Source: an uncultured Acidobacteriota bacterium | GTDB taxonomy: Bacteria > Acidobacteriota > Vicinamibacteria > Vicinamibacterales > 2-12-FULL-66-21 | DNA length: 64,000 bases | Assembly: GCA_963804245.1 (NCBI GenBank) | Contig: CAWDPQ010000019.1 | Coordinates: 70,949-134,948, forward strand | Direction: 5' to 3' | Part shown: positions 20,201 through 39,317 of the stretch, piece after piece | Numbering within the stretch: position 1 is the stretch's first letter | How the letters are laid out: each line of letters begins with the position of its first letter | Position numbers and translations under genes: made by a program | The notes under the pieces: model-generated | The model's input: the letters and a program-made list of their open reading frames with translations, nothing else | Told to the model about the DNA's origin: nothing | Databases searched by the model: none

Positions 20201-20671
20201 CGTCAATGCGATCATCGGCGGGTGGCAGTTCAACGGCATCACGACGCTGCAGGCGGGAACACCCTCTGTCGATCACCGCGAACAACACGGCCGGGAATTT
20301 TCGCGACCAGGACGCAGCCGAACAACAACGGCAACGATCCCAGGCTGAGCGGGCCTGTCGAGGATCGGCTGAACCGATACTTCGACACCACCGTCTACAG
20401 TCAGCCGGCGGCGTTCACGTTCGGCAACGAGCCGATTTTCTCGCCGATGCTCCGCGCCCACGGCGTGCGCAATTTCGATCTGTCGCTGTTCAAGGCGTTC
20501 CAGTTGCGGCAGACGACAACGCTGCAGTTCCGAATCGAGGCGCTCAACGCATTCAACCGCGTGCAGTTCTCCGCTCCGAATACCTCCGTCACATCGGCTT
20601 CATTCGGGGTGATCACCGGTCAGTTCAACGCCCCGCGTCAGCTGCAGTTCGGGCTGAAACTGTTGTGGTAA
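17259..20671 (+). pseudogene. TonB-dependent receptor with CarboxypepD_reg-like N-domain; the C-terminal 230 codons need four frame corrections
   Basis: ATG 17259 has GGAGGA 5 nt upstream and signal [22 protein letters not shown]. The body is in ORF 17205-20348. Frames change at ~19989, ~20200, 20262-20264 and ~20310, through ORFs 19942- and 20222-20671, ending ..[10 protein letters not shown]. Confidence 0.8.
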
Positions 20672-22423
20672 ACCGGCGACCTTGGGTCGCGCTGTCGTTC
20701 GGAATCGTGGCGGCCGCGCTCATGGCCTGCGGCCGCCAGCCCCTGCCTCCAGCCAGCCCCGGCAATGGCGGGCTGTCACTGCCGGACGGATTCGAGGCCG
20801 CCGTGCTCCACGACGGCGTCGGTCGTGCCCGGCACCTCGCCGTCACCGACGACGGCATCGTCTACGTCAAGCTGCGGGTCCCCAATCCGAAGGGGTTGGT
20901 CGCTCTTCGCGATACCGGTGGCGATGGCCTCGCCGACCAGGTCGAAGTGTTTGGAAACTACGACGACACCGGCGAGTACGGCACCGGCATGCGCATCCGC
21001 GACGGCTACATCTATTTCAGCACCGCCCGCGAAGTGTATCGGCAGAAGATCACGCCTCGCCAGCTCGTTCCCGACAGCTCCGTGGAGATCATTCTGAAAC
21101 ACATTCGGAAGGGCGATCGGAAGTCGTACGAGCACATCGCCAAGGCGTTGGCGTTCGACGACAAGGGGCACATGTACGTCGGGTTCGGCGCACCCGGCGA
21201 CTCGTGCCAGGAACTGAACCGCCGGCCCGGAGCGCCGGGACAGGATCCGTGTCCAGAGCTCGAGTGGCAGGGCGGCGTCTGGCAGTTCGATGCCAACCGT
21301 CCGGGACAAACGCAAGAGGACGGCCGCCGCTACGCCACCGGCATCCGCAGCATCGTCGCCATGACCTGGAATCGCCAGGTCGGTCAGCTCTATGCGCTGC
21401 AGCACGGGCGTGACGATCTCTACCGGTCGTGGTCGCAGTTCTATTCACGCTGGCAGAGTGCGATCCTGCCGTCGGAAGAATTCTTCAAGGTCACCGAGGG
21501 ATTCGATGGCGGCTGGCCCTACTACTACTACGACTGGATGCAGGGTAAGAAGCTGCTCAATCCCGAATACGGCGGCGATGGGGTGAAGGTGGGGAAGGGA
21601 GGCGATCTCGAAAAGCCGCTTGTCGGCTTTCCCGGTCACTTCGCGCCGAACGATCTTGTGTTCTACGAGGGCGATCAATTTCCGGAGCGCTACCGGCACG
21701 GTGCGTTCATCGCATTCCATGGTTCGACGATTCGCATGCCGTACTCGCAGGCGGGCTACATCGTCGCTTTCGTACCCTTTTCGGGCGGCGCGCCATCCGG
21801 CCCATGGGAAGTGTTCGCCGACGGCTTCTCCGGAGTGGATCCCATCGTCAACACCAACGATGCGGCCGGCGCGGCCGGTTGGACTGGCGCAAGGTCCGGA
21901 CGGGTCGCTTTACGTCAGCGACAGCGTCAAGGGCAAGATCTGGCGCGTGATGTACAAGGGAGATCGGGCATCGTTCGGCGCCGCCCAGCTTGCAGGTATG
22001 GAGGCACGCAAGCAGCAGCAGGCACACATACGGCAGCCGGACGCGGAGAAAGACGTCCTCGGGCGCGAGGTGACGGAAGCTGGCGCAAAGGTCTACGAGA
22101 AGTTCTGCGCCGTCTGCCACCAGCGCGACGGCAAGGGGGACACCAGCCGATTTCCACCGCTAGTCTCGACGAATTGGGTGATGGGCAACAAATCGCGACT
22201 GATCTCGCTCGTATTGAATGGACTTCAGGGCGAGATCGAGGTCGAGGGCAGGAAGTACAACGGCGTCATGCCGCCGCACACCTTTCTGACCGATGAGCAG
22301 GTTGCGGAGCTGCTCACGTTTCTCAGGCAGAATTTCGGGAATCATGCGAACACGGTCAGTGCGGTGGAGGTCGCGGAAGTTCGCGCGAAGCCCGCTGTGC
22401 CGGTCACGCCACCTGCGCGGTAA
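20665..22423 (+). pseudogene. PQQ-dependent sugar (glucose/sorbosone-type) dehydrogenase fused to a cytochrome c domain; one frame break (~21873)
   Basis: GTG 20665 overlaps the receptor stop. Lipoprotein-like signal ..FGIVAAALMAC. The propeller body is in the frame of ORF 19942-22296. After a 1-nt correction (..NDAAGA|PVGLAQGPDGSLYVSDS..) it continues in ORF 21620-22423, which carries the CAVCH haem motif. Confidence 0.75.
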
Positions 22424-22493
22424 GCCTGTTTGGCGGCGTCGGGCCTCAAATCGAGTTCAGCCACTTGCCAAAAGCTCACACAAGAATGGGTCG

Positions 22494-23270
22494 TCAGAAA
22501 TCCTCGTACGCCCCCACCGGTGTCTGCTCCATGTCGACTACGGCGCCGGTGATGAGCGCACTCTCATCAGACGCGAAATAGGCCGCGGCGTACGCAATCT
22601 CCCGCGGCTGAATCAGGCGACCGAACGGTCGCGTGGCGATGGCCTCGTCCAGCCATTCTCCGCCGTTGCGGTTCTTGCGCTGGACCTGCTCTTCGCCTTC
22701 GGTCAGCACCCATCCGGGATTGAGCTGATTGACGCGGATGCGGTACTTGTTCAAGGCGCACGCGGCGTTGCGGGTCATCGTCATCAGCCCGCCCTTGGAG
22801 ACGGCGTATGGACCGAGCTTCGGCGATCCGACGTAGGCGTTAATCGATCCGATGTTCAGAATCGATCCGCCGCCGCGCGCCTTCATCGACTTGACGGCTT
22901 CCTGCAGGCAGAGGAACGGCGCCCGCAGGTTGACGGCCATCATGCTGTCCCAGAACTCGACCGGCGCGTCCTCCAGCCGCGCGCGGGAGACGTCGCCCGC
23001 ATTGTTGACGAGGACGTCGACGCCGCCGTGGGACTCGACCGCGAACTGGACCACGCGGCGGCACGCTGTGACGTCGCGTAGATCGCCGTCAACGGCAATC
23101 GCGTCATGTCCTGCAGCGGTCAGCCGCTCGGCGACGTCACCCGCCTGCCGCGCATCGAGGCCGTGAATCACCACCTTCGCGCCCAATGCGGCAAAATGCT
23201 CCGCGATGGCCCGCCCAATGCCGGAGCTCGAGCCCGTCACGACCGCGACCTTATTTTGAAGGAACGACAC
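22494..23270 (-). CDS. SDR-family oxidoreductase
   Basis: ORF 22494-23270. TGSSSGIG, NNAG, and YAVSKGG (YxxxK). Confidence 0.85.
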   Translation of the reverse strand: MSFLQNKVAVVTGSSSGIGRAIAEHFAALGAKVVIHGLDARQAGDVAERLTAAGHDAIAVDGDLRDVTACRRVVQFAVESHGGVDVLVNNAGDVSRARLEDAPVEFWDSMMAVNLRAPFLCLQEAVKSMKARGGGSILNIGSINAYVGSPKLGPYAVSKGGLMTMTRNAACALNKYRIRVNQLNPGWVLTEGEEQVQRKNRNGGEWLDEAIATRPFGRLIQPREIAYAAAYFASDESALITGAVVDMEQTPVGAYEDF

Positions 23271-23273
23271 GAA

Positions 23274-24326
23274 TCACCGCGAAGCGTTCGGCAACAGTAC
23301 TGATTTGATCACTCGCCGATCGTGCATGGCGTCGAAGGCTTCACGCCAGTTCTGAAGCGGCGCACGCATGCCGACGATGGCTTCCGGCATGGTCAGCCCG
23401 CGGTTCAGCAGATGGATGACGCGCTCCCAGACGGGATAGTTGTGGCTGAACGATCCCTGCAGCCGGAGGTTGCGCTGGACGAGCGGGTTCATGTCCAGGG
23501 CGATCGCGTCCGGAGACCATCCCACCTTGATGACCTGCCCGTCCGGGCGCGTCAGACGAAGCGCGGTCTCGAGCGGCCGGCTGGCTCCAGTCGCATCGCA
23601 GACGAGGTCCGCACCAATCGCTGAATAGCCGCGCACCACTTCGTCCAAATCCTCCTGCTGCAGGTCGACCGTCCGCGTCGCCCCGAGGCGCCGGGCCGTT
23701 TCGAGCCGCGGGGCGTCGGCGGTGACGCCGGCCACAATCAACGGGTCGGCACCCGAAAGTGCCGCCATGCGCGCACACAACAAGCCAATCGGCCCCGGAC
23801 CCAAAACGACGACCAGATCGCCCGGGTGAATGACGGAATTGACGCACATCGATTGGTAGGCCACGGCGTGCGGCTCGCACAGGCAGGCGATGTCGAAGGG
23901 CAGCGAGTCCGGGATGCGATGGAGGCAGCGTGCCGGCACGCGAACCCACTGCGCCATCGCTCCATCGATACCGTAGCCGAAGCCTTTTCGCGAGGGACAC
24001 AGGTTGTAGCGTCCGGTTCGGCATAGCAGGCACTCGCCACAGATCTCCGCGGCGGTCTCGCTGACGACGCGGTCTCCTTCGCGGAAGCCGCGAACGCCGC
24101 GGCCGATGCGGGCGACGGTTCCGCAGAACTCGTGGCCGAGGACGACCGGAACGTTGACCGGCCACGAATGGGTTTTGTGCGCCTGGTGGACGTCCGAGCC
24201 GCAGACCGACACGGCCCCTACCTCGAGCAGGACCTCGCCTTCACCCACCGCGGGCACCGGGATTTCACGCAGTTCGACGGCCAGGGGCTCGAGCGCGTAG
24301 TGGACGACTGCGGCGTGTGTTTCCAT
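23274..24326 (-). CDS. Zn-dependent medium-chain alcohol/polyol dehydrogenase (sorbitol/threonine dehydrogenase-like)
   Basis: ORF 23274-24326. VCGSDVH, GHEFCG, structural-Zn cysteines CGECLLCRTGRYNLC, and GPGPIGLL Rossmann motif. Confidence 0.85.
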   Translation of the reverse strand: METHAAVVHYALEPLAVELREIPVPAVGEGEVLLEVGAVSVCGSDVHQAHKTHSWPVNVPVVLGHEFCGTVARIGRGVRGFREGDRVVSETAAEICGECLLCRTGRYNLCPSRKGFGYGIDGAMAQWVRVPARCLHRIPDSLPFDIACLCEPHAVAYQSMCVNSVIHPGDLVVVLGPGPIGLLCARMAALSGADPLIVAGVTADAPRLETARRLGATRTVDLQQEDLDEVVRGYSAIGADLVCDATGASRPLETALRLTRPDGQVIKVGWSPDAIALDMNPLVQRNLRLQGSFSHNYPVWERVIHLLNRGLTMPEAIVGMRAPLQNWREAFDAMHDRRVIKSVLLPNASR

Positions 24327-24329
24327 CGG

Positions 24330-25109
24330 TCAGCGAGCGTCCGCTCCGCCGCTGCCTTTCGGCGCGGACGGCCCGAGCTCGGCGATTGAGATGTTGCGGA
24401 ACTGCACGAGGCTTGGCGGGCTCGTCCAGACATCACCTTTTTTCGAGCCGTGGTGCTGCAGCGCGATCGGCCCGGCCGGCTTGATGCCCGGGAGCTCCGC
24501 GTTGTTGATGACGGTCTCGCCGTTGAGCACGACGGTCAGCCGGCTTCCGCGCATCGTGATTTCGAAGGTGTTCCACTCGCCGATGTTGCGATCGGCGTGC
24601 TTGGACGGCGTGACGCCCGCGCGCACCGCCGGCGGCATCTTCTGGTCGGTGCGGTAGCCGTAGACCTCGCCAGAACCGATCGGCCAGTTCCAGATGTTGA
24701 CCTGGGACTTGCCATCGCCGCGAAGGTAGATTCCCGAGTCGGAGTCGGGCACGGGAATGCGGATGTCGTTCCCGCTGGCGTCCTTCTTGTGAGTACCGTC
24801 GGGGCGAATGATGTAGACGTTCGGATTCGTGTAAGGCGTTTCCTTGATGCGCCAATCCACGCGCAGGATGAAATCGCCATACGACTTTTCCGACCACAGG
24901 GCCTTGTCGCCGGTCGCTTCGCTCGCGGCGTCGTAGTCGACTACGCCGTCGACGACCTTCCAGTGCCCGTTGTCGCCGGCCGGAATCTTCCAGCCGGTCA
25001 AATCCTTGCCGTTGAAGATGGAGGCGAACTTCGGCTGCTGGCCGCTCGCCACGGTGGTCAGGGCCAGAACCGCGACGGTCGTCAGGGACGTAAAGAGTTT
25101 TGCAGTCAT
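24330..25109 (-). CDS. DUF1080 (3-keto-disaccharide hydrolase-like) secreted protein
   Basis: ORF 24330-25109. Signal peptide, FNGKDLTGWK, GEWNTFEI and IALQHHG...FRNI hallmarks. It has 3-nt gaps to the two downstream dehydrogenase genes (operon). Confidence 0.85.
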   Translation of the reverse strand: MTAKLFTSLTTVAVLALTTVASGQQPKFASIFNGKDLTGWKIPAGDNGHWKVVDGVVDYDAASEATGDKALWSEKSYGDFILRVDWRIKETPYTNPNVYIIRPDGTHKKDASGNDIRIPVPDSDSGIYLRGDGKSQVNIWNWPIGSGEVYGYRTDQKMPPAVRAGVTPSKHADRNIGEWNTFEITMRGSRLTVVLNGETVINNAELPGIKPAGPIALQHHGSKKGDVWTSPPSLVQFRNISIAELGPSAPKGSGGADAR

Positions 25110-25187
25110 GATTGGACTAATTTAGGCTACGTTCTGTCGTCGGTGAACAAAAAACGACAATCCCTCCGCGGCGGAGGGGGCGGAGAT

Positions 25188-25522
25188 CACGGGACAAGCT
25201 TCAACACGGAGGCACGGGGGCACGGAGGATCGCGGCCCATTGGCGCGCCGTTCGCTTGTCAAAAGCATCAACGCATCAGAGCACGCAAAAGGCCGAGACG
25301 ACATGGGTAATTCGGGTAAACGGGGCTGGCGTGCGCCGACCTTGGTCGGCGTGGACCCTCACCGCGCGCAGCGCGGCACGCCAGCCACGCAGCCGCAACT
25401 AGCAGTCCCAGTCGTCTCTGCTCCCAGCGGTCTCCGCGTTGAAGCTTTTAGACAAGCGAAGATTGTGGGAATTGACTGGCTGCTCCGTGGCTCCGTGACT
25501 CCGTGTTAGAGCTTGTTCCGTG
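25188..25522. repeat. ~335-bp unit bounded by 41-bp imperfect inverted repeats (34/41) made of CACGGAG-type heptamers; MITE-like or a large RNA stem
   Basis: IR-L 25188-25228 is cacgggacaagcttcaacacggaggcacgggggcacggagg. The reverse complement of 25482-25522 is cacggaacaagctctaacacggagtcacggagccacggagc. The interior contains two further small hairpins (about 25334-25350 and 25362-25376). Confidence 0.65.
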
Positions 25523-25579
25523 TCCTCAGCGACCTCCGTGCCCGTGGCAGGCAAATACGCAGGAATTGGAGGTTGGAAT

Positions 25580-27301
25580 TTGATACAGCTCACCAAGCCC
25601 TCCGAGATTCACGACGTCATCGTGATCGGCTCAGGGGCCGGCGGCGGCACGGTCACGAAAGTGCTCGCCGACCTGGGCATCCGCGTGCTCCTGCTCGAAG
25701 CCGGCCCGATGCTGACCATGGCCGACCTGAAGGAGCACGTCTGGCCGCACCAGATTCCCCACCGCGGCGCTGGCGGCAAAGGGGAAATCTACACGGGCGG
25801 CCGCTCCGGCTTCACCTTCAGCGCCACGTTTGGCGGCGCGCAGATCGACGGCGAACCCTACACGGTGGCGCCGGGCAGTGACTTCTCGTGGTTCCGCTCC
25901 AGGATTCTCGGTGGCCGTACGAACCACTACGGCCGGGTCACACTCCGTTTCGCCGACTACGATTTCACACCGCGCTCTCGTGACGGGCTCGGTTGGGACT
26001 GGCCGATCACCTACCAGGACCTGTCGCCCTACTACGACAAGGCCGAACGATTCATCGGCGTCACCGGCAGCGTCGAAGGGATCCGCAGCGCCCCTGACGG
26101 CATCTTTCAGCCGCCCGGTGCGCTCAAGGCGCACGACGTTCTGGTCCAGCGCGCCTGCGCGAAGCTTGGCATCCGCGCCGTTCCGGCGCGCCAGGCGGTG
26201 ATCACCACGCCAACGAGCGGTCGCGTCCCCTGTCACTACTGTGGCCAGTGCGGACGCGGCTGCATGACGGCGTCGAACTACGCCGCGAGTTACGTGCAGA
26301 TCTTTCCGGCAGTCGAGACCGGCCGAGTGCGCGTCATCGCAAATGCGATGGCCCGCGAGTTGATCACAGGCGACGATGGCAAGGTCAACGCCGTGTCCTA
26401 CATCGACAAAACGACCGGCCGTGAGCAGCGGGTCAGCTGCCGCACGGTGGTCCTGGCGGCGAGCGCCTGCGAGTCGGCGCGGCTGCTGCTCAATTCGAAG
26501 TCGTCGCGGCATCCGCAAGGCGTCGCCAACAGCTCGGGCAAAGTCGGCCGCTACTTGATGGATACGGTTGGCTCGAGCATGTCCGCTTCAATCCCGGCTC
26601 TCTCCGGGATGCCGCATTACAACTCGGATGGCTATGGGTCGCATCTCTACGTTCCCTGGTGGAACTGGGACAACAAAGGCCTGAATTTTCCGCGCGGCTA
26701 TCACATCGAGGTTGGCGGCGGCTACGGCATGCCGGGGATCGGATCGTTCACCGGTCTCGTCAATCGCACCGAAGGATACGGTCTGAAGATGAAGCAGGCC
26801 ATCCGCGATGAATACGGCACCAGCATCGGCTTTGCCGGCCGCGGCGAGATGATTCCGAACGAGTCATCTTTCTGCGAAATCGATCCCGCCGTCGTCGACC
26901 GCTGGGGGATTCCGGTGCTGCGATTCCATTGGGCGTGGAGCGACCACGAGCTGAATCAGGTTCGTCATATGCAGGACACGTTCCGCGCCATCCTGGAGTC
27001 GCTCGGCGGGCGGATTCAGGCCGGCGGCGGCCGCGGCGGTCAACAGCCGGCGCCCGGTCGTCCGCCCATCTCACGCGGCGGGGCCATCATCCACGAAGTG
27101 GGAACGGTCCGCATGGGAAACGATCGTCAAACGAGCGTCCTGAACCGATTCTGTCAAGCGCACGATGTGAAGAACCTGTTCGTGGCGGACGGTGCACCGT
27201 TCGTCAGCAATCCCGACAAGAATCCTACTCACACGATCATCGCGCTCGCGTGGCGGACGGCCGAGTATCTGACGGAAGAACTGAGGAAAGGCAATGTCTG
27301 A
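25580..27301 (+). CDS. GMC-family FAD oxidoreductase (glycoside/gluconate 2- or 3-dehydrogenase large subunit type)
   Basis: ORF 25520-27301 with the DVIVIGSGAGGG motif. TTG 25580 has GGAGG 7 nt upstream and lies outside the inverted repeat. GTG 25520 is the upstream limit. Confidence 0.85.
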   Translation: MIQLTKPSEIHDVIVIGSGAGGGTVTKVLADLGIRVLLLEAGPMLTMADLKEHVWPHQIPHRGAGGKGEIYTGGRSGFTFSATFGGAQIDGEPYTVAPGSDFSWFRSRILGGRTNHYGRVTLRFADYDFTPRSRDGLGWDWPITYQDLSPYYDKAERFIGVTGSVEGIRSAPDGIFQPPGALKAHDVLVQRACAKLGIRAVPARQAVITTPTSGRVPCHYCGQCGRGCMTASNYAASYVQIFPAVETGRVRVIANAMARELITGDDGKVNAVSYIDKTTGREQRVSCRTVVLAASACESARLLLNSKSSRHPQGVANSSGKVGRYLMDTVGSSMSASIPALSGMPHYNSDGYGSHLYVPWWNWDNKGLNFPRGYHIEVGGGYGMPGIGSFTGLVNRTEGYGLKMKQAIRDEYGTSIGFAGRGEMIPNESSFCEIDPAVVDRWGIPVLRFHWAWSDHELNQVRHMQDTFRAILESLGGRIQAGGGRGGQQPAPGRPPISRGGAIIHEVGTVRMGNDRQTSVLNRFCQAHDVKNLFVADGAPFVSNPDKNPTHTIIALAWRTAEYLTEELRKGNV

Positions 27302-27878: not shown

Positions 27879-27888
27879 CGCTCCCCAT

Positions 27889-28519: not shown

Positions 28520-28582
28520 GGGTGCTCCACCTCCTGTGTTTCCGCTCGTTCCATGAAACATTGCAACATCCAGACCCGAACA

Positions 28583-32460: not shown

Positions 32461-32479
32461 GAAGTACTCCCTTCTGGCG

Positions 32480-33340
32480 CTACGGCCGACATCTGGTGGG
32501 GTTGGATTTCACGAAATAGGTCTTGTAGTTCGAGGCCTTGGGATCCATGCAGCCCTCGAGGTTGAGCAGCTCCACTTTCCGGAAGTCGATCGGCGCGGTT
32601 TCCGCCTGGAGCGAAATGAAGCCGCCGGTCAGCGGCGTTCCGTCGACCTTTACTGCCGGGTCCACAGGACTCACGTTCCCGCCGCCGATTTGCGGCTTCG
32701 AGTATTCCAGCACGGTCGCGCCATCGACCATGTGCCGCACGAGCTCATCTCCGTGGATCAGCACTTCGACGCGAACCCACTGGTCGCCGTCGTAGGTTTT
32801 CGACGTCGAGTTGATACAGTGCCGTGTCACGAGCGCGCCGTTCATGACGACGTTGGTGCCAGGCGTGCAGAGGTTGGCGGTGGTGCGCGGCTTGCCGTTG
32901 CTCAAGCCGCCGAGCAGCTGCACCTCGATCGAGATCGGGAAGTCCTGATCCTTCACCATCGTCTTGGGATCCGGTGAGTGAAGCATCAGCCCATTGTTGC
33001 GCACCGCCCAGCCCAGATCGGTCCGTGACGTGCGGACTTGTTCGCCGACGAAACGGTATTCGGCGGCAATCACGTAGTAGGAAAACGGCTCGCGATAGAA
33101 GATGTGCCCGAACTGGTCGTCGAAGGTCTGCCACTTGTCGTACCGCACTTTGAGGAGCCCATCTTCGACGCGAAACGTGTCGTTGACGTTCTCACCGAGC
33201 GGGTAGTGCGCAAACTTGATGCTCCAGTCCTTCAGGTCCCGACCGTTGAACAGCTGAATCCATTCTTTCTGATCCGCTTTGCTTTGTGCCGATCCAACCA
33301 TGACGGCACAGGCCACAGCAGCGAGCACGCCCCATCGCAC
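32480..33340 (-). CDS. DUF1080 (3-keto-disaccharide hydrolase-like) secreted protein
   Basis: ORF 32480-33358. GTG 33340 has GAGGAGG 6 nt upstream, giving signal MRWGVLAAVACAVMVGSAQS. FNGRDLKDW and ISLQAE...IDFRKVELL hallmarks. Confidence 0.85.
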   Translation of the reverse strand: MRWGVLAAVACAVMVGSAQSKADQKEWIQLFNGRDLKDWSIKFAHYPLGENVNDTFRVEDGLLKVRYDKWQTFDDQFGHIFYREPFSYYVIAAEYRFVGEQVRTSRTDLGWAVRNNGLMLHSPDPKTMVKDQDFPISIEVQLLGGLSNGKPRTTANLCTPGTNVVMNGALVTRHCINSTSKTYDGDQWVRVEVLIHGDELVRHMVDGATVLEYSKPQIGGGNVSPVDPAVKVDGTPLTGGFISLQAETAPIDFRKVELLNLEGCMDPKASNYKTYFVKSNPTRCRP

Positions 33341-33356
33341 TTGACACCTCCTCGAC

Positions 33357-33496
33357 ACGTGCTACGTGCTACGTGCTACGTGCTACGTGCCCCACGTGCA
33401 CCGGGCACTCGCACGTCGCACGTCGCACGTCGCACGTCGCACGTCGCACGTCGCACGTCGCACGTCGCACGTAGCACGTCGCACGTGCACGTGACA
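33357..33496. repeat. Inverted heptamer arrays: (ACGTGCT)x4 - 20-nt spacer - (GCACGTC)x9 with GCACGTA variant
   Basis: Read directly. The arms are complementary at 6 of 7 positions per unit. The array fills the whole gap between the haem-protein stop (33501) and the DUF1080 RBS. Confidence 0.9.
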
Positions 33497-33500
33497 CAGC

Positions 33501-36500
33501 TCACTTCAGCGTCCTGAGAAACTGCACAACATCCCTAATCTCGCGCGGCTTCAGGATCAAGCCCATCGGCGGCATCGCGGAAACCGGGTTCGTCCGCTCG
33601 GCGATGTCAGACTTGGCGATCCGCTCTTCGACTGCGGGCGTCCCGGTGGTGACAACCACCTGTGTGTCCGTTTCGTCGCGCAGGGTGCCGTCCACCTGCC
33701 GTCCGTTGCGAAGTTTGAAGGAGGCCGTTCCGAAGCCCGGCGAAATCCGGGCATTGGGTTCGAGCAGCGCTTCCAGCAGCTGCTCGCGGGTTAGTGTGGC
33801 GCCGACCGTACTGAGATTCGGCCCGACGTCCGCGCCCCTGCCGCGCAGCGTATGACACCGTGAGCACTGGCTCGCGGCATTGTCTGTGTAGACCTCGCGG
33901 CCGCGGGCGGTATCGCCGCCGGTCAGCAGGGAGCTGCGGAATGCTGCCACCAGCGAGTCGGCCGATCGTGCTTTCCGGTAGGCCTCGAGCCGATCTGCGA
34001 ACAGAGTCGAGCCGGTCGCCTGCATGGCATCCACCAGGTCGATGTGTACATCGGTCGGCAGCGTGCCGGCGACCAGCTGATCGAAGTACGCGCCCAGCGC
34101 CTGATGCGCGTATCGACTGTCCATTCGCCCGAGAACTTCGAGCGCACCCTGCTTTTCCTCGACCGATCCCCGCTTGACGAGGGATTCGAGGTGGCGGACC
34201 TTCGCCGCATCCGTCAGCGGCAGCGCCGGCAGGATGTCGAGCGCGGCTCGCCGGACCGCGGGATCGGCGTCGGCGAGGGCGGTTTTCATCACCTCCGCGA
34301 TGTTCGGTGCTTTGAGTACTTGCAACGCGCGCAGCCCGGCCAGGCGTACGTCCGGCGAAGGATCCTTCTGTACCTGGGCCCACAGTATCGGCCCGGCCTC
34401 CCTGAGCTCGAGCCGTCGTGCGGCATCGGCCAGTGCCACTTTGAGCGTCGGGTGACCGTCGTCCTTGGCAATCGCCTGCACGAGCTGCAGCACTGCAGTG
34501 CGTGCCGCGGCGGCATCACGCTTCTCTATCGTCGTTTGTGTTGGCTGTGCGCCCGGCGTCCGCGGCGTGCCGATGTAGAACCCATCGACCCGGTCCAACG
34601 ACGAGGGGTTCGGCCAGACACCGAGGACCGCGATGGCCTCGGCGCGCATCTCGTTCGAGTTACCGGTGTCCGCTGCAAAGGACGCGACGCGCGTCAACGC
34701 GCTCGCCGTCCCGACACGCAGATTGGCATTTATCACTCGTCGCAGCAGCGGCACGTTCGAGACTTTCTTTTCTCCGAGTTGTTGCGCCAGGTAGCGGAGC
34801 GCCCCTTCGATCCCGCCGTCGTCATTGATGGCTCGAGCGGCTTCGGTGACGATGCCTTCGTCGGCGTCGGAGAGGAAGTCAGCGACGAGCGGCTGGCTAA
34901 GACGTCTGAGGGCGACGACCGCCGCCAGCCGTACAGCGGTGGATGAATGTTTCGCCAGTTTGCCGATGGCGGTGGTCTCACCGATGAGCGCAAGGGCGAG
35001 GCTGCCGGCGTGCCGGAGATAGACATCGCGGTCGGCGTTCGCCTCGAGCATTTCGATCAACGGGCCGACGGCCGGTTTGTAGGCGATGCGGCCGAGCGCC
35101 TCGGCGGCGAAGAAGCGTGCTCTCGCGGAATCGTCCTTCAACAGCTGCAGCAGCGCGTCGCCTCCCTGCGCATAGCGGACATCACCGATCATCTTGGCGG
35201 CCTGCGCGCGAGTCTCCGGATCCTTGTCCCTGAGGAACTGCGTCAGCTGCGAGGCGTGCTCGGGGCTTTTCCTCGCCAGCTGAGTCACGCCCCAGAGCGC
35301 ATGAATCCGGCTGAGGCGGTGACTCGAGTCACGCGCTGCGGCAAGGAGCGGTTGTACGTCTCCACGGCGCACCAGCTCGAATTGAGCTCTCTGCCTGACG
35401 CGCATGTCGGCGTGGCGCAAGAGGCTGCCGAGGTTCTCGACGCTGCGGGTCCTCAGATTCTCCGAGAGGATTGATTGCACTTCTTTTCTGATGGCGCTGC
35501 CCGCGGCTTGCGGCGCGTCGAGCTTCCAGAGCCGGCCGTTGTTCTTCGAGTCCCAGCCGGTGATCCAGTCAGTTAGATAGAGAGCCCCGTCCGGTCCGAT
35601 CTTCATGCCGACGGTGAGGATGCCGCCGAGCAACACTTTCTCGTTGTCGAGCGCAAACCCGGCGCCCTCCTCTTTCAGCGTGAACGCGTAGATCTTGGCG
35701 TTGGCCGGCGCGCCGGGGAAGCTCGACACCATGAAGTGTTTTTGCCACTCCTCGGACAGCGCGGTTCCCGGGTTGTAGACCATGCCCGACGGACCGGCGT
35801 GCCACGGCGCGACGGGTGGGATGATGTGGGCCGCCTGCCCATCGAACCGCGGCTTGAACATCCCCTCGTCCATCCAGACGTTGTAGCGGTTGTTCTCGGA
35901 ATCGGTGTACTTGCCGTATTGCCAGTTCGAACGCCAGCCGCTGTCCGATCCATTCGGAATGTAGACGAGGCGCTCGAATTCCCCCTGATGATCGCCGTCG
36001 TTGTCGACGGTGATCAGATTCCCGTGCTCGTCGAATGAGAACTCCTGAAGGTTGCGTATCCCCGTTGCGAAGACTTCGAAGTCTGAGCCGTCCGGATTGG
36101 CCCTGAGCACCGCGCCCTGATTGGGATACGACCAGCGTCGGCCATTCCTGTCGACCACGCTGAAGCCCATGTCGCCGACTTCCCAGTAGATGCGGCCGTC
36201 GGGCCCGAGCGTCACTCCGGAAATGCCGTGTCCGCCGAACGCGGGATGGATGTTGAAGCCCTCGCTGATCGCCGTCCGCCGCTCAGTGGCGACCTTGCCG
36301 TTGTTCACGTCTTTCAGGCGATAGACGCCCGGCGGGACGCCGACGATCAGATCTCCTTCGTGGTAGAGAATCCCGCCGGCGATATCCCACGTGGGATCGT
36401 CGTTGAAACCTTCGACGAGGATCTCCGACAGGTCCGCGATCCCGTCGCCATCGGTGTCCTGGATGCGGTGCACCCGTTCCTTGAATTCCGCCAGATCGCG

Positions 36501-37055
36501 CCAGTCGCGCGAGCCATCCTTGTTGTAGTCCTCGATCCACGTGTTCTTGCTGCTGCGCTCGGGGCTCATCTCGCGTCGATAGAAGTCGAGCAGATCCTCA
36601 CGCGTTTTGAGCGTGTGCGCCGGCGTGAACCAGGTTGGATGCTGCCGGATGTCGAGCGGCATGTTGTTGCGCGTCGAACTGGTCACGTAGACGGTGCCGC
36701 GCTCGTCCAGGTCGATGGCCACCGGATCGACGACCAGCTGCTCCGGGGCCCAGAGGGTCAGCTCCAGGCCCGCCGGTATGTCGACGGTGACTTTCGCGCG
36801 TTCTTCCTTGGCCGCGCGCGCGGCGTCAGCCGGTGTGAGCCGCACGACTTTCGGGTGAGGTGGTGTCGCTGGCGCCTGATCGCCGCCAGGCTTGGCCACG
36901 AACAGCATCAGGAGCGCCGCGAACGCGAACAATTCGCGACGGCGCGAGCCATAACCGCAACTCCAGCGTTCTGCGCAGGGCACGGCGCCGATGCTAGCAC
37001 GACGCGGACCGACCGAGATCGTGCCAGGATCGTTGTGGTAGTAGAGTGACGCCAT
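33501..37055 (-). CDS. Large PVC-type haem-binding protein: membrane-bound-dehydrogenase-like beta-propeller + HEAT repeats + C-terminal cytochrome c
   Basis: ORF 33501-37211, uninterrupted. DIDGDGIADxSE-type calcium loops, many HEAT-like repeats (VRxAAxxAL), and CSRCH haem motif near the C-terminus. The start is uncertain: ATG 37055, or TTG ~36940 just before the hydrophobic segment FAFAALLMLFVA. Confidence 0.8.
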   Translation of the reverse strand: MASLYYHNDPGTISVGPRRASIGAVPCAERWSCGYGSRRRELFAFAALLMLFVAKPGGDQAPATPPHPKVVRLTPADAARAAKEERAKVTVDIPAGLELTLWAPEQLVVDPVAIDLDERGTVYVTSSTRNNMPLDIRQHPTWFTPAHTLKTREDLLDFYRREMSPERSSKNTWIEDYNKDGSRDWRDLAEFKERVHRIQDTDGDGIADLSEILVEGFNDDPTWDIAGGILYHEGDLIVGVPPGVYRLKDVNNGKVATERRTAISEGFNIHPAFGGHGISGVTLGPDGRIYWEVGDMGFSVVDRNGRRWSYPNQGAVLRANPDGSDFEVFATGIRNLQEFSFDEHGNLITVDNDGDHQGEFERLVYIPNGSDSGWRSNWQYGKYTDSENNRYNVWMDEGMFKPRFDGQAAHIIPPVAPWHAGPSGMVYNPGTALSEEWQKHFMVSSFPGAPANAKIYAFTLKEEGAGFALDNEKVLLGGILTVGMKIGPDGALYLTDWITGWDSKNNGRLWKLDAPQAAGSAIRKEVQSILSENLRTRSVENLGSLLRHADMRVRQRAQFELVRRGDVQPLLAAARDSSHRLSRIHALWGVTQLARKSPEHASQLTQFLRDKDPETRAQAAKMIGDVRYAQGGDALLQLLKDDSARARFFAAEALGRIAYKPAVGPLIEMLEANADRDVYLRHAGSLALALIGETTAIGKLAKHSSTAVRLAAVVALRRLSQPLVADFLSDADEGIVTEAARAINDDGGIEGALRYLAQQLGEKKVSNVPLLRRVINANLRVGTASALTRVASFAADTGNSNEMRAEAIAVLGVWPNPSSLDRVDGFYIGTPRTPGAQPTQTTIEKRDAAAARTAVLQLVQAIAKDDGHPTLKVALADAARRLELREAGPILWAQVQKDPSPDVRLAGLRALQVLKAPNIAEVMKTALADADPAVRRAALDILPALPLTDAAKVRHLESLVKRGSVEEKQGALEVLGRMDSRYAHQALGAYFDQLVAGTLPTDVHIDLVDAMQATGSTLFADRLEAYRKARSADSLVAAFRSSLLTGGDTARGREVYTDNAASQCSRCHTLRGRGADVGPNLSTVGATLTREQLLEALLEPNARISPGFGTASFKLRNGRQVDGTLRDETDTQVVVTTGTPAVEERIAKSDIAERTNPVSAMPPMGLILKPREIRDVVQFLRTLK

Positions 37056-37976
37056 GCAGACAGCACTCGACCGCCGCACGCTCCTAAGAACGCCGCGTTC
37101 GCGGCAGCCGCGATCCCCTTCTTGACGACGAAGACCGCCGCGGCCGGAGCGATGTTCGTGTCGCTCAATTCGTCGCTCACCAGGCAGATGGACTGGAAGG
37201 AGTTCGTCCAACTGGCCGCGCGGCTAGGCTATGGCGGCGTGGACGTCAATCTCACGGCGGCACGCAAGGAAGGCGCGGGCGCGACGCGCGCGCTCCTCGA
37301 CGGTCTGAAAATCAAGCCCGGTGTGGCGTCGCTTCCCGTTCGATATACCAACCCGGACGAGAGCGTGGTCCTCGAAGAGCTCAAGCAACTGGACGACGCG
37401 GCGAAGTTCGCCGCCGAGATCGACTGTCCGCGGATGATGGCGGTGCTGCCGCCATCCAGCCAGACGCCGAAGGCGGAGTTTCGGAAGGTGATCAAGGACA
37501 GGGTGACCTCGATCGCAGGCATTCTTGCCCGTTCGAACGTCCGTCTGGGCCTCGAGTTCCTCGGTCCCTTGCACTTTCGGACGCGCAATCCGCACGAGTT
37601 CATCTGGCGCATGGACGAAGCGCTCGCGTTCGCCAAAGAGTGCGGTCCCAACGTCGGCTTGACGCTCGACGCCTGGCATTGGCACCACGCCGGGGCGACG
37701 GCCGCAGACATTCTCGCCGCGGGCAAAGCCCGCATCGTTCACGTGCACGTGTCGGACGCACGGCAGCAACCGCCTGAAGAGGTTCGCGACAATCAGCGGG
37801 TATTCCCAGGCGAAGGCGTGATCGATCTCACGACATTCTTCCAATCGCTGCAGAAGATCGGCTACGAAGACGCCGTCAGTCCCGAGCCGATCGGTCGTGT
37901 ACCTCAGGAAATGCCGGCCGAGGAGGGAGCGCGGCTCGGCCTCGAGACGACGCTGGCGGCCATGCGAAAGGCCTGA
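37054..37976 (+). pseudogene. Xylose-isomerase-like TIM-barrel (sugar phosphate isomerase/epimerase family) enzyme; the twin-arginine signal is separated from the body by a 1-nt frame break (~37086)
   Basis: ORF 37122-37976 carries the barrel. ATG 37054 opens MQTALDRRTLL in another frame. Restoring one A (CTA-A(A)G-AAC) yields MQTALDRRTLLKNAAFAAAAIPFLTTKTAAAGA|MFVSLNS..., a canonical Tat signal. Confidence 0.75.
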
Positions 37977-37977
37977 A

Positions 37978-38005
37978 AAAAGGGGACAGTTGAGTGTCCC
38001 CTTTT
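37978..38005 (+). terminator. Stem-loop AAAAGGGGACA-gttgag-TGTCCCCTTTT followed by a T-rich run (copy 2 of the GGGGACAC palindrome)
   Basis: It starts 2 nt after the TIM-barrel stop. 11-bp stem, then cttttcccttt. Confidence 0.75.
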
Positions 38006-38027
38006 CCCTTTGCTAGACTCCCGCCTT

Positions 38028-39317
38028 ATGAAATCTCTAATGCTCCTGCTTGCCCTGACCCCTCTCTCGATGCAGTCACCCGCATCCGAGCAGGGGTTCG
38101 TAACACTTTTCAACGGAAAGGATTTCACCGGCTGGAAGATCAGCAATCCAGCCTCCTTCAAGATCGAGAACGGCGCCATCGTCGCGAACGGCACCGCCGG
38201 CCACGCCTACTACGACGGTCCGGTCGGCAAGACCTTCCGCAATTTCGAGTTGAAGATCGACGTGATGACGAAGCCAAACTCGAACGGTGGCGTTTACGTG
38301 ATGACGGAGTTCCAGGAAAAAGGCTTTCCGTCGAAGGGATTCGAGATTCAGGTGAACAACACCTACAAGGATCCCGTGAAGAGCGGAAGCCTCTACCACG
38401 TGCAGGACATCTTCGAGCCGCCGGCGAAAGACGACGAGTGGTTCACGGAACACATCATCGCGCAGGGCGAGACGATTACCGTGCGGGTCAATGACAAACA
38501 GGTCGTGCAGTGGACGCAGCCCGGCGACTGGAACGGTGGACGCGAGGGGCCGGGCCGGCGGCTCGGTTCGGGCACGATCGCGCTGCAGGCACACGATCCG
38601 GGCAGTACCGTCTACTACAAGAACATCCGCATCAAGCCGCTCGACTCCGCGCAGTCGCAGGGTGCGTCGACGGCGCAGGCGCCCGCGCCGGCAGCCGGTC
38701 AGGGACGCGGCAACCAGCCGGCGCAACCCATGACGTTCTTCGTCACCAGCGTCGGCCTCGGCAAGGGTGCGAACCTTGGCGGGCTGGCGGGTGCCGACGC
38801 GCACTGTCAGGCGCTCGCCACCGCCGTCGGGGCCGGCGGCCGTCAGTGGCGCGCCTACCTGAGCACGCAGGGACCGAACGCGGTCAACGCACGCGACCGC
38901 ATCGGCAAGGGACCCTGGCACAACGTGAAAGGTGCGTCGGTTGCCCGCGATCTCGAACACCTGCACGGCGACACGATTGATCTCGCGCGCATGGGGAACA
39001 CGTTGACCCGTGCGACTGCGCTCAGCGAAAAGGGTGAACCGATCAAAGGGGCGGGCGACACGCCCAATCAGCACGACATTCTGACCGGCTCGCAGCTCGA
39101 CGGCCGCGCGTTCACCGACGGCGCCGACCACACGTGCAACAACTGGACGAGCGACGGCACTGGCTCCGCACAGGTTGGCCACCACGATCGCGCGGGCGGT
39201 CCTGGTGTCTCATGGAATTCCGTGCATGCCAGCAAAGGATGCAGTCAGGAAAACCTGGTCGGTACCGGCGGTGCCGGACTCTTGTATTGCTTCTCCCCAG
39301 GAACTGCTGGACAGTAG
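38028..39317 (+). CDS. Secreted two-domain protein: DUF1080 domain + Ala/Gln/Pro linker + Cys-containing DUF1554/endostatin-like (C-type-lectin-fold) domain
   Basis: ORF 38010-39317; ATG 38028 gives signal MKSLMLLLALTPLSMQSPAS. The N-half has FNGKDFTGWK...IALQAHDPGSTVYYKNIRI. The C-half has FFVTSVGLGKGANLGGLAGADAHCQALA...WRAYLST...CNNWTS...GCS...LLYCF. The C-domain family is named from memory. Confidence 0.7.
   Translation: MKSLMLLLALTPLSMQSPASEQGFVTLFNGKDFTGWKISNPASFKIENGAIVANGTAGHAYYDGPVGKTFRNFELKIDVMTKPNSNGGVYVMTEFQEKGFPSKGFEIQVNNTYKDPVKSGSLYHVQDIFEPPAKDDEWFTEHIIAQGETITVRVNDKQVVQWTQPGDWNGGREGPGRRLGSGTIALQAHDPGSTVYYKNIRIKPLDSAQSQGASTAQAPAPAAGQGRGNQPAQPMTFFVTSVGLGKGANLGGLAGADAHCQALATAVGAGGRQWRAYLSTQGPNAVNARDRIGKGPWHNVKGASVARDLEHLHGDTIDLARMGNTLTRATALSEKGEPIKGAGDTPNQHDILTGSQLDGRAFTDGADHTCNNWTSDGTGSAQVGHHDRAGGPGVSWNSVHASKGCSQENLVGTGGAGLLYCFSPGTAGQ

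Follow-up and report, generated by a model that had tools for sequence, protein, structure and literature searches.

Putative small modules for periplasmic sugar oxidation in a dense gene island of a Vicinamibacterales genome

A genome of a soil acidobacterium contains a dense group of genes for exported oxidoreductases, DUF1080 proteins and a TIM-barrel enzyme. Do these genes form one periplasmic system or several? The window analysed here, a 64,000-nucleotide stretch of DNA, comes from a Vicinamibacterales MAG (soil Acidobacteriota) with a 5.8-Mb genome. The initial annotation regarded its 18-kb cluster as a single candidate system for cleavage of glycosides via 3-keto intermediates, wired to c-type cytochromes. 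We favor, at about even odds (probability roughly 0.5), a loose island rather than one operon, in which cytoplasmic clean-up enzymes accompany three or four independent modules, each a periplasmic pairing of sugar dehydrogenase and keto-sugar-processing enzyme.

Genes were assigned with Pfam and NCBIfam profiles, and export signals were judged by eye. All genes listed in the initial annotation are present, and the concentration that it described is borne out by a genome-wide window count: the 18.65 kb of the island hold eight members of six families as compared with a genome mean of 0.35 and with six in the next densest window. The island is the densest patch of exported sugar-oxidising enzyme families in this genome, and the clustering exceeds chance. 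The genome encodes about 23 DUF1080 proteins, 36 TIM barrels, 28 Gfo proteins, six GMC pairs and about 16 PVC-type haem proteins. For 11 of the 23 DUF1080 genes, a TIM, Gfo, GMC or PVC-haem gene starts within 4 kb (2.3 expected), a number that was reached in none of 2000 random placements. The genome also has a paralogous array of its own, DUF1080–GMC–small subunit, at C9:52124-55035. The statement that most parts are exported applies with the exception of five of the 15 genes (SDR, Zn-ADH, NagB-like, Gfo, PALP), whose products have no discernible export signal. Likewise, the remark that no transporter is embedded in the cluster needs to be qualified because an outer-membrane transporter, a TonB-dependent receptor (17205-20671, forward strand; CarboxypepD_reg and OMP_b-brl_4 domains, Pfam 538 bits), abuts its 5' end directly upstream.

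The GMC pair and its recurrent partners

The GMC flavoprotein catalytic subunit (25520-27301, forward strand; Pfam) has no signal peptide of its own. The adjoining gene (27294-27878, forward strand) encodes a small subunit of the Gluconate_2-dh3 type (PF13618, Pfam 84 bits) with the Tat motif SRRDVLRRL. NCBIfam gives the catalytic subunit no family name. Its kin are the alpha subunit of B. cepacia FAD-GDH and the large subunit of Gluconobacter FDH (E ~1e-40), and its motif CHYCGQCGRGC (residues 238-248; pattern CxxCxxCxxxC) aligns with the Fe-S cysteines of FAD-GDH. The motif is kept in 78 of 80 GMC orthologue loci of Acidobacteriota, and the small subunit adjoins GMC in 78 of the 80. Cysteine spacing is identical to that in GmcA of AceDH, a GMC protein whose Fe-S cluster reduces soluble cytochrome c (10.64898/2026.06.11.731722). 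Given this conservation and spacing, an electron link from the GMC pair to c-type cytochromes is plausible. To this extent the proposed cytochrome wiring stands, but nothing ties the two haem proteins of the island to the GMC pair as acceptors, and none of the six GMC pairs of the source genome has a cytochrome c subunit gene nearby.

Another exported enzyme is a xylose-isomerase-like TIM barrel (37054-37976, forward strand; Pfam) with a Tat signal (MQTALDRRTLL/KNAAF...) that a frameshift near 37085 cuts in two; RR signals are present on all orthologues with a readable N-terminus. Orthologues with 50–73% identity lie within 10 kb of a GMC pair in 14 of the 80 loci; these cover two classes and several orientations, and we estimate about 0.3 of 80 by chance for a single-copy gene (20 kb of ~6 Mb per genome). 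Some TIM gene is found in 22 and some DUF1080 gene in 15 of the 80 GMC loci (HMM built here). The closest orthologues of the TIM barrel (68–72% identity) do not adjoin GMC, and their neighborhoods vary widely. Its likening to known lyases did not hold up: it is nearest to IolI and 3u0h, AtOGE (8BVK) is matched with an E value of only 0.62, and none of the CarBC, DgpBC or BT1 chains is among its matches.

Three DUF1080 proteins, all with Sec signals, are encoded in the island. DUF1080a (24330-25109, reverse strand; PF06439, Pfam 126 bits) is divergent from the GMC gene; its orthologue adjoins GMC in the same-genus genome G001, but the HEAT-cytochrome gene described below in G012 (L124). DUF1080b (32480-33358, reverse strand; Pfam) has variant active-site motifs (LQAE instead of LQxH). 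Its orthologues occur in 21 of 41 related genomes, many of them directly downstream of a propeller dehydrogenase and some after GSDH or PQQ propellers, and the neighborhoods of the closest ones vary widely. DUF1080c (38010-39317, forward strand; Pfam) combines a DUF1080 domain (approximately residues 29-209) with a lectin-like C-terminal domain of the DUF1554 type, a fusion seen in this genus only. Orthologues of its N-terminal domain (58–64% identity) lie directly downstream of GMC and small subunit in three of the 80 loci (L058, L059, L070). A full-length match (E 2e-31) connects the DUF1080 profile with the BT2157 structures; identity between the island proteins and any solved member is only 22–30%. 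DUF1080c keeps six of six mappable conserved BT2 residues, DUF1080b lacks two of those mapped and DUF1080a appears to lack one.

Comparative genomics hence links the GMC protein and its Tat small subunit with DUF1080 and the Tat TIM barrel, as the initial annotation had suggested. These linkages include a Pseudoalteromonas operon (Gfo-TIM-MFS-DUF1080-GMC-small subunit-TIM; GMC 46% identical) whose members are split into exported and cytoplasmic ones as in the island.

Haem proteins, cytoplasmic enzymes and gene order

The first gene of the cluster (20665-22423, forward strand; lipobox LMAC) encodes a lipoprotein with a GSDH-like beta-propeller (34.5 bits) and a C-terminal class I cytochrome c (47 bits; CAVCH). 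It had been described as a PQQ sugar dehydrogenase–cytochrome c fusion. Both domains are there, but the PQQ label is not established because the GSDH match is weak (32–34 bits), and the haem motif and the propeller are read in different frames (frameshift near 21860-21885). In G001 other genes take its place. The second haem protein (33501 to about 36983, reverse strand; likely start GTG 36983) is exported and consists of a DUF7133/TIGR02604 propeller, HEAT repeats and a C-terminal cytochrome c (TIGR02603) with one CxxCH (Pfam, NCBIfam). The order of this gene followed by DUF1080b is kept in three genera (G001, G004, G012). In G018 the HEAT-cytochrome gene adjoins a DUF1080c-type gene, and G012 has one co-directional array made up of a TonB receptor gene and the orthologues of DUF1080a, HEAT-cytochrome and DUF1080b.

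DUF1080a, the Zn-dependent alcohol/polyol dehydrogenase (Zn-ADH; 23274-24326) and the SDR oxidoreductase (22494-23270; Pfam, NCBIfam) are all encoded on the reverse strand with 3-nt gaps; the two dehydrogenases have no signal peptide. Best NCBIfam matches of Zn-ADH are threonine 3-dehydrogenase and scyllo-inosose 3-dehydrogenase, all far under the cut-offs. SDR orthologues (71–72% identity) lie within 6 kb of a GMC pair at L034 and L052, and SDR is a candidate cytoplasmic keto-sugar reductase.

Four further reverse-strand genes encode a PLP-dependent threonine/serine dehydratase-like PALP protein (31468-32460; NF004771, 358.7 bits versus a cut-off of 317), a cytoplasmic Gfo/Idh/MocA protein (30365-31486), the NagB/Pgl-like protein after it (29671-30384; both Pfam, NCBIfam) and a PHP metallohydrolase of the CehA/McbA family that has a signal peptide and, at its C-terminus, a hydrophobic anchor (28583-29674; NF038032, 95.9 bits versus a cut-off of 80). 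The view of this group as an operon belonging to the system is not sustained: its products are mostly cytoplasmic, and only the Gfo–NagB pair is conserved, adjacent in five genera (G001, G011, G012, G020, G032) and apart from other cluster genes. A role of Gfo as a Tat-exported glycoside 3-dehydrogenase is not supported by the NCBIfam calls, and the protein has no export signal. At the position of the PLP gene G001 has 51 bp instead; the gene is likely a genus-level gain or loss outside the system.

Collinearity of the island is confined to the genus and is interrupted there too, by 16.7 kb of unrelated genes in G001 (MacB-type permeases, a receptor, a sulfatase), which speaks against a single 18-kb system. 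Outside the genus, no more than two or three of the genes recur together, and the recurring units are small modules: the GMC pair (in some loci with TIM barrel or DUF1080c), HEAT-cytochrome with DUF1080b, and Gfo–NagB.

A reading of the island and its alternatives

In characterized systems the same set of families performs 3-keto-glycoside cleavage (PMC10628242, PMC9007349, 10.1101/2024.03.25.586180). The island families match those of the Agrobacterium GlycDH/TAT-OGE-HYD-Gfo, Caulobacter LacABC-DUF1080 and Bacteroides BT2156-60 pathways. Unlike these systems, the island has a GMC pair without an adjoining cytochrome c subunit gene, its Gfo lacks an export signal and its TIM barrel is closest to IolI rather than to the known lyases; none of its enzymes is close to a characterized one. 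Judged from sequence, the island looks like a scattered version of the known oxidise-first glycoside cleavage pathway, not like one new 18-kb machine.

From family membership, export signals, the conserved cysteine motif and recurrent gene neighborhoods we infer catalytic steps, substrate, regiochemistry and electron acceptor as follows. In the core module, a two-subunit flavo-iron-sulfur GMC dehydrogenase would be exported in folded form via its small subunit's Tat signal. Its periplasmic substrate would be a glycoside or an oligosaccharide, in which it would oxidise a sugar hydroxyl, at C3 by analogy with GlycDH and LacA. Electrons may leave FAD via the CxxCxxCxxxC cluster and be received by a separate cytochrome of the c type or by some other acceptor in the periplasm. 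The Tat-exported, putatively metal-dependent TIM barrel and DUF1080 proteins (c, perhaps a) would act on the activated keto-sugar, where abstraction of the proton next to the carbonyl could lead either to loss of the aglycone by beta-elimination, with the glycal then being hydrated, or to isomerisation. The keto-hexose would then be taken up and reduced with NAD(P)H in the cytoplasm, with SDR and Zn-ADH as candidates and Gfo as a possible third. A second module, comprising the propeller-HEAT-cytochrome c protein, DUF1080b and perhaps the GSDH-like lipoprotein, may carry out similar chemistry with a built-in haem acceptor, and the adjacent TonB receptor may import substrate. The fluid gene order, the closest TIM orthologues not being next to GMC and the insertion in G001 count against this proposal, as do the distance of its enzymes from characterized ones, the lack of a cytochrome c subunit gene near the GMC pairs and the BT2 residues missing from DUF1080b and apparently from DUF1080a.

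It is possible, though unlikely, that the GMC pair and the TIM barrel act on a non-glycoside (a polyol, an inositol-type cyclitol or a small ketol), with an IolI-like keto-isomerase/epimerase following the dehydrogenase and with DUF1080 proteins being GH16-like glycanases or binding proteins rather than lyases or hydratases. IolI, the nearest characterized relative of the TIM barrel, is an inosose isomerase, and the best NCBIfam matches of Zn-ADH, Gfo and TIM barrel are inositol-pathway enzymes, but all of these matches are far below curated cut-offs. AceDH, a two-subunit Fe-S GMC enzyme, oxidises acetol, a non-sugar (10.64898/2026.06.11.731722), which by analogy would also count against the modular proposal given the matching cysteine spacing; relatives in the class with three subunits oxidise fructose and glucose at other carbons, and one DUF1080 protein has been reported to be an endo-xanthanase/lichenase (cited in PMC9007349). 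On the other hand, the recurrent company of DUF1080 genes, TonB receptors and, in Hymenobacter, SusC/D and GH92 genes points to glycans, and DUF1080c retains the mappable BT2 residues.

Similarly doubtful is the idea that independent members of hugely expanded families came to lie together by chance in a plastic region and share neither substrate nor pathway. It would fit the large family totals, paralogues that are only 25–34% identical and the varying neighborhoods of the closest TIM and DUF1080b orthologues. However, the TIM–GMC and DUF1080c–GMC linkages and the HEAT-cytochrome–DUF1080b pair recur far above chance, the placement test disagrees, and the same families occur in tight operons in Pseudoalteromonas as well as in Agrobacterium and Caulobacter (PMC10628242, PMC9007349). 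Least probable by a clear step is one integrated periplasmic system in which GMC and Gfo feed the two haem c proteins: despite the presence of all families at their greatest density in the genome, the order retained in the same-genus genome and the G012 array, only pairs and triples recur beyond the genus, G001 carries the insertion and lacks the GSDH-cytochrome and PLP genes, the Gfo, NagB-like and PLP proteins lack export signals, and both haem proteins, each with its own propeller domain, look like complete dehydrogenases rather than GMC acceptors.

Frameshifts and matching soil DNA

Four genes in the window are frameshifted, those for the TonB receptor, the GSDH-cytochrome lipoprotein, the TIM barrel and a DUF4142 lipoprotein (27976-28561, reverse strand; Pfam). 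The latter was absent from the initial gene list and has no evident role in the pathway. The TonB receptor gene has at least three frame changes in its last 700 nt, which place the C-terminal piece in another frame. In G001 the receptor and the DUF4142 protein are intact (ORFs of 1164 and 219 amino acids, respectively). Contigs from other soils differ by indels where the receptor and TIM-barrel genes are broken: in the receptor gene, single bases are missing from soil contigs at 19984, 20184, 20198, 20261-65 and 20291-96, and the TIM-barrel frame is restored by an 8-nt indel that a soil contig has at 37086. Near-identical DNA is present in soil metagenomes of 11 studies, and parts of seven island genes are covered by contigs from a single soil RNA library.

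Gene content, export signals and reading frames

The DNA between 20665 and 39317 is best regarded as a loose island of modules belonging to one guild, a reading to which we assign a probability of about 0.5 and for which we infer the catalytic steps, the substrate and the electron acceptor alike. As such, the island would be an acidobacterial, two-subunit and scattered version of the known oxidative glycoside-cleavage toolkit. An Fe-S-containing GMC heterodimer would act in the periplasm, where it would oxidise a glycoside or sugar, the electrons being taken over by a c-type cytochrome or similar acceptor. The keto-product would be processed by a Tat-exported TIM barrel together with DUF1080c, and perhaps also DUF1080a, before cytoplasmic reductases complete the pathway. 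A propeller-HEAT-cytochrome protein paired with DUF1080b would constitute a second module.

The source genome comprises 5.82 Mb in 21 contigs and is about 91% complete, and the G+C content is about 64% all along the window. All genes listed in the initial annotation exist, each one having been recovered by Pfam and NCBIfam scans. A GSDH-like propeller joined to a class I cytochrome c and preceded by a lipoprotein signal (20665-22423) is followed by a minus-strand run of DUF1080a, Zn-ADH and SDR genes with 3-nt gaps (25109-22494) and by the GMC flavoprotein with its Gluconate_2-dh3 small subunit, which carries a Tat motif (25520-27878). A DUF4142 lipoprotein gene (27976-28561), split by a frame change, lies between the small subunit and the PHP hydrolase that belongs to a second minus-strand run of DUF1080b, PLP dehydratase, Gfo, NagB-like and CehA-McbA PHP hydrolase genes (33358-28583). 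The remaining members are a DUF7133/TIGR02604 propeller with HEAT and cytochrome c domains of about 1160 residues (36983-33501), a xylose-isomerase-like TIM barrel (37054-37976) and DUF1080c with a DUF1554-like C-terminal domain (38010-39317). A TonB-dependent receptor gene (17205-20671) abuts the island. Further upstream are a TonB receptor C-terminal remnant (8174-9298), a 493-aa ORF without Pfam match (9683-11161), an SMP-30/gluconolactonase gene (11168-12190) and a second SDR gene (12249-13121). The segment 9797-12193, which covers the 493-aa ORF and the lactonase, is mostly collinear in the same-genus genome G001; the lactonase would suit the product of an aldose 1-dehydrogenase.

The proposal that most parts are exported held for ten proteins with predicted export, among which the GMC flavoprotein is entered as a hitch-hiker on its small subunit, and failed for SDR, Zn-ADH, NagB-like, Gfo and PLP proteins, whose N-termini, judged by eye, are without signal. 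The CehA/McbA-type PHP hydrolase (28583-29674) has a signal peptide and a C-terminal hydrophobic stretch followed by RR (...LVCGLGLAIAASRRMAGP), which could be a membrane anchor or sorting signal.

Several reading frames are interrupted. The TonB receptor gene contains at least three frame changes (19985-20300), the haem motif CAVCH of the GSDH-like gene and its propeller are in different frames, and a frame change interrupts the TIM barrel's Tat signal (MQTALDRRTLL/KNAAF...). In G001 the receptor, DUF4142 and TIM barrel ORFs are intact. Soil contigs from three independent metagenome studies lack single bases at 19984, 20184, 20198, 20261-65 and 20291-96, and an 8-nt indel at 37086 in one soil contig unites both halves of the TIM reading frame. 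Based on the intact ORFs and the soil-contig indels, the frameshifts are read as assembly errors or strain indels and not as decay; no contig spanning the GSDH-cytochrome frameshift near 21860 was present among the matches listed. A decaying pseudogene island was also considered and was rejected in view of well-kept peptide blocks, together with the intact ORFs of G001 and the position of the soil-contig indels at the breaks. The indels are not evenly distributed but cluster at the 3' end of the receptor gene (19985-20300) and in DUF4142 (27976-28561), both of them short stretches; systematic consensus error or strain mixing may be responsible. A promoter and terminator scan of 20000-39900 yielded zero sigma-70-like sites and 20 terminator-like sites, with 14 +/- 3.9 expected, and thus does not define transcription units.

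The GMC pair and its candidate partners

A GMC flavoprotein and its small subunit form a textbook pair. The catalytic subunit matches PF05199 and PF00732, and its closest solved relatives are FAD-GDH of B. cepacia (6a2u) and fructose dehydrogenase (FDH) of Gluconobacter (7w2j), with E values of about 1e-40. The small subunit (PF13618, 84 bits) has the Tat motif SRRDVLRRL, and its gene overlaps that of the GMC protein by 8 nt. CHYCGQCGRGC, residues 238-248 of the GMC protein, aligns with the Fe-S cysteines of FAD-GDH and FDH, and the CxxCxxCxxxC motif recurs in 78 of the 80 loci with an orthologue, as well as in four of five paralogues checked in the source genome. FAD-GDH, which oxidises glucose at C1, and FDH, whose substrate is fructose, consist of three subunits, one of them a membrane-bound multihaem cytochrome c, and differ from the window GMC in cysteine spacing. 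Because none of the six GMC pairs in the genome has an ORF with more than one CxxCH within about 8-10 kb, the enzyme is assigned to a two-subunit class with an external acceptor. We know of no requirement for a cytochrome c subunit in the operon of GlycDH, the GMC enzyme of Agrobacterium. AceDH (GmcA/GmcB) of Methylacidiphilum fumariolicum is likewise a heterodimer, with a GMC flavoprotein as the alpha subunit and a small beta subunit that bears a Tat signal; it oxidises acetol, and its surface [Cu-4Fe-4S] cluster, to which the small subunit contributes a Met ligand, reduces a separate soluble cytochrome c as electron acceptor (10.64898/2026.06.11.731722). The CxxCxxCxxxC spacing of GmcA and of the window GMC is identical.

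A non-glycoside substrate such as a polyol, a cyclitol or, as in AceDH, a ketol, with the TIM barrel acting as an IolI-like isomerase, is an unlikely alternative that the relatives of this TIM barrel would favour. In sequence profile and fold searches the protein (PF01261; predicted model with a pLDDT of 90) has 3u0h and IolI as its nearest neighbours, with ketose epimerases next, and the sole described lyase among the sequence and fold matches listed was AtOGE (8BVK), with an E value of 0.62. Affinity to CarB/C-type lyases was not borne out, as no CarBC, DgpBC or BT1 chain appeared at a profile E <=1 or among the Foldseek matches listed, to rank 50. The TIM barrel is Tat-exported, and all orthologues with a readable N-terminus have RR signals; synteny links it to the GMC pair, and neither of its nearest solved relatives, 3u0h and IolI, is described as a lyase.

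On the glycoside side of the argument are the DUF1080 proteins, which score 103-137 bits with PF06439 and whose profile has full-length matches to the BT2157 structures (E 2e-31). In BT2, conserved channel residues are N134, E164, Q166, Y190, Q273 and H275, with E103 and K245 in loops (10.1101/2024.03.25.586180). By alignment the former six could be mapped, while the two loop residues could not be placed. DUF1080c (38010-39317) retains all six mappable residues (N, E-x-Q, Y, Q-x-H; E103 and K245 being outside the mapping), DUF1080a (24330-25109) about five, the Glu seemingly missing, and DUF1080b (32480-33358) four, with V in place of Y and E in place of H. Outside the genus, the related genomes searched encode counterparts of the two DUF1080c halves in separate genes, so that the fusion is seen only in the source genome and G001. 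Its C-terminal half, 60-80% identical to these counterparts, is the better conserved of the two; its resemblance to clusters automatically named 'lectin' may serve as a lead only. The Gfo protein of the run 33358-28583 has no signal peptide and reached 23.7 and 33.6 bits with NF058561 and NF058563, the models of the Tat-exported Gfo/Idh/MocA glycoside 3-dehydrogenase (BT_2158, BT_2159), far short of the respective cut-offs of 750 and 650.

To our knowledge, Agrobacterium, Caulobacter and gut Bacteroidales are the only bacteria in which oxidative, glycosidase-independent glycoside cleavage has been elucidated. As described by Bitter et al. 2023 (PMC10628242), GlycDH of Agrobacterium tumefaciens and Rhizobium sp. 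GIN611 is a flavoprotein of about 66 kDa that was produced together with a 'TAT-pathway signal protein'. Its substrates are O- and C-glucosides, which it oxidises at C3, and it takes ferricyanide in preference to O2; the 3-keto-glycoside undergoes elimination and hydration by two TIM barrels of the 'sugar phosphate isomerase' type (AtOGE, AtHYD), and a Gfo enzyme, an NADH reductase, reduces 3-keto-glucose. DUF1080 is prominent in the window, and we know of no mention of it for the GlycDH operon; the window genes are scattered over 18 kb. The window has the same set of families and a conserved GMC-TIM neighbourhood, the likeness being one of family membership. When plasmids were searched with the GMC protein, an Agrobacterium GlycDH-like record was not among the best rows; best matches were GMC proteins of Hymenobacter and Pseudoalteromonas (46% identity). 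The latter is encoded on a chromid in an operon with the order Gfo-TIM-MFS-DUF1080-GMC-small subunit-TIM, preceded by an AraC gene and with a TonB receptor gene near; signal peptides are present on its DUF1080, small subunit and second TIM proteins and absent from the N-termini of Gfo and the first TIM protein. The Hymenobacter pair is surrounded by SusC/D, GH92 and LacI genes.

A small Tat subunit also belongs to LacABC of Caulobacter crescentus, in which LacB is the cytochrome c component. This lactose 3-dehydrogenase has a periplasmic GMC subunit, and its cluster includes 'sugar epimerases', a reductase and a transporter, with a periplasmic DUF1080 protein with signal peptide encoded nearby (DUF1080 proteins CCNA_01705 and CCNA_01698; PMC9007349); the function ascribed to DUF1080 there derives from fitness data only (PMC9007349). 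The window shares the GMC protein and exported DUF1080 with this system, and its genome has no multi-CxxCH cytochrome gene near any of the six GMC pairs. In the pathway of BT2156-2160 (Bacteroides thetaiotaomicron) and AL1-5 (Alistipes), a Tat-exported Gfo/Idh/MocA protein with tightly bound NAD is the oxidant, and an exported TIM-barrel 3-keto-beta-glucoside 1,2-lyase and a DUF1080 alpha-lyase/hydratase precede a cytosolic reductase (10.1101/2024.03.25.586180). By contrast, the oxidant in the window would be the FAD/Fe-S GMC protein, the window Gfo having no such signal.

Clustering and conservation of the modules

Mere co-location of abundant families is an explanation to which we give low odds. 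Abundant they are, with about 23 DUF1080, 36 TIM-barrel, 28 Gfo, 6 GMC plus 6 small-subunit and about 16 PVC-type haem genes (propeller, HEAT and cytochrome c) in the genome. When an 18.65-kb window was slid along all contigs, it held 0.35 family genes on average; the island, with 8, is the maximum, and the runner-up window held 6. Moreover, 11 of the 23 DUF1080 genes have the start of a TIM, Gfo, GMC or PVC-haem gene within 4 kb, where 2.3 are expected, and this number was reached in none of 2000 random placements. With identities of 25-34% the paralogues are old, and the DUF1080 pairings are thus not recent duplications.

That the 18 kb form a single integrated system, as originally put forward, is improbable, since the full order is kept in G001 alone, is altered even there, and gives way to modules at family and phylum level. 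In G001, the GSDH-cytochrome gene is replaced by genes for a MacB-type permease, a C-N hydrolase and a pectate-lyase-like protein, and the gap between the small subunit and DUF4142 genes is widened by a 16.7-kb insert (MacB permeases, receptor, EamA transporter, esterase, sulfatase). The PLP threonine-dehydratase-like gene (31468-32460) was gained or lost within the genus, as 51 bp take its place in the otherwise collinear locus of G001.

The preferred reading of a loose island builds on those modules that recur. GMC and small-subunit genes lie side by side in 78 of the 80 acidobacterial loci, and orthologues of the window TIM barrel (50-73% identity) are found within 10 kb of the GMC pair in 14, all in Vicinamibacterales and Bryobacterales and in several orientations; for a single-copy gene, about 0.3 of 80 would be expected by chance (a 20-kb span in each genome of about 6 Mb). 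Directly 3' of the GMC pair, three loci (L058, L059, L070) carry orthologues of the DUF1080c domain, with 58-64% identity. With an HMM built here, a DUF1080 gene of some kind is detected in 15/80 GMC loci and a TIM gene of some kind in 22/80. The pair of Gfo followed by NagB-like genes is kept in five genera, at sites apart from the other modules. Gene order in the group is fluid, given that the closest TIM orthologues (68-72% identity) lie away from GMC genes.

Carbohydrate use by Vicinamibacterales and Bryobacterales, which are abundant in soil and for the most part uncultured, may be underrated by CAZyme-based surveys. If DUF1080, TIM, GMC and propeller-haem genes form pathways of the proposed kind, turnover of glycans and plant glycosides in soil would in part be directly coupled to respiration via periplasmic dehydrogenases. 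A short list of proteins for assay emerges, with the GMC pair, the Tat-exported TIM barrel and DUF1080c on the one hand and the propeller-HEAT-cytochrome protein plus DUF1080b on the other.

Propeller-haem proteins and occurrence in soil

The most surprising lead is that DUF1080 genes repeatedly occur paired with genes for PVC-type haem proteins, for which we know of no accepted function. The order HEAT-cytochrome gene (36983-33501) then DUF1080b (32480-33358) is kept in G001, G004 and G012, representing three genera. At the G012 locus C20:1-18831, a co-directional array consists of orthologues of DUF1080a (76%), the HEAT-cytochrome gene (64%) and DUF1080b (77%) and a TonB receptor gene; it resembles a compact form of part of the window island, without GMC. 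In G018, another related genome, the haem gene adjoins a DUF1080c-type gene, and other DUF1080b orthologues are located behind GSDH propellers, a PQQ propeller with a cytochrome c before it, or a TIM barrel.

A published counterpart is Lac161_ORF7 from a soil Verrucomicrobia cosmid, which combines a TIGR02604 domain, HEAT_2 repeats and a cytochrome c with TIGR02603 (PMC5342196). The cosmid allowed growth on lactose in S. meliloti and not in E. coli, and the protein was named a 'novel beta-galactosidase' based on a glucose-release assay (PMC5342196). At the domain level, its architecture is that of the window protein of 1160 residues. A Lac+ phenotype confined to S. meliloti fits a cytochrome-dependent dehydrogenase better than a 'beta-galactosidase'. 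Taking as hints this phenotype, the gene pair in three genera, the G012 array and the DUF1080b orthologues behind GSDH or PQQ propellers, it is tempting to speculate that PVC-type haem proteins are cytochrome-c-linked glycoside or sugar dehydrogenases with a dedicated DUF1080 partner for the keto-products, within a respiration-coupled, glycosidase-free breakdown; we rate this as unlikely. If true, respiration-coupled glycan breakdown without glycosidases would extend to Acidobacteriota, Planctomycetota and Verrucomicrobiota and would make use of three interchangeable kinds of oxidant, namely NAD-Gfo, FAD/Fe-S GMC and propeller-haem proteins. Both propeller proteins of the window matched GSDH (PF07995) with only 30-34 bits, among the weakest GSDH matches of the genome, and AlphaFold2 gave no reliable model of the N-terminal propeller of the HEAT-cytochrome protein from a 5-sequence alignment (mean pLDDT 31). 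The PqqC model had zero matches in the genome and zero in control genomes too, and therefore permits no statement on PQQ supply.

Metagenomes from soil, rhizosphere and mine drainage, 11 studies in all, contain DNA nearly identical to the window. In one soil RNA library, contig pieces of about 320-670 nt, with 1 to 9 mismatches each, fall on the GSDH-like gene, DUF1080a, the NagB-like gene, Gfo, the HEAT-cytochrome gene and the TIM barrel gene, and a contig covers the junction of DUF1080b and the HEAT-cytochrome gene. These contigs are consistent with expression in soil and do not prove transcription levels or operons, contig depth being unfit for ranking genes or demonstrating co-transcription.

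In the gap between the HEAT-cytochrome gene and DUF1080b, a heptamer-repeat array (33352-33500) is of variable length: 147 nt are absent from one DNA contig (X1) and one RNA contig (X17), where 16 other letters take their place. The bin depth at this array, 20-70 times that of its neighbours, points to a repeat family common to many soil genomes. Finally, contigs of three runs join 31493 to 37988 via about 27 other letters, and the palindrome GGGGACAC is present at both sites; this junction is read as a shared repeat element and not as a true deletion.
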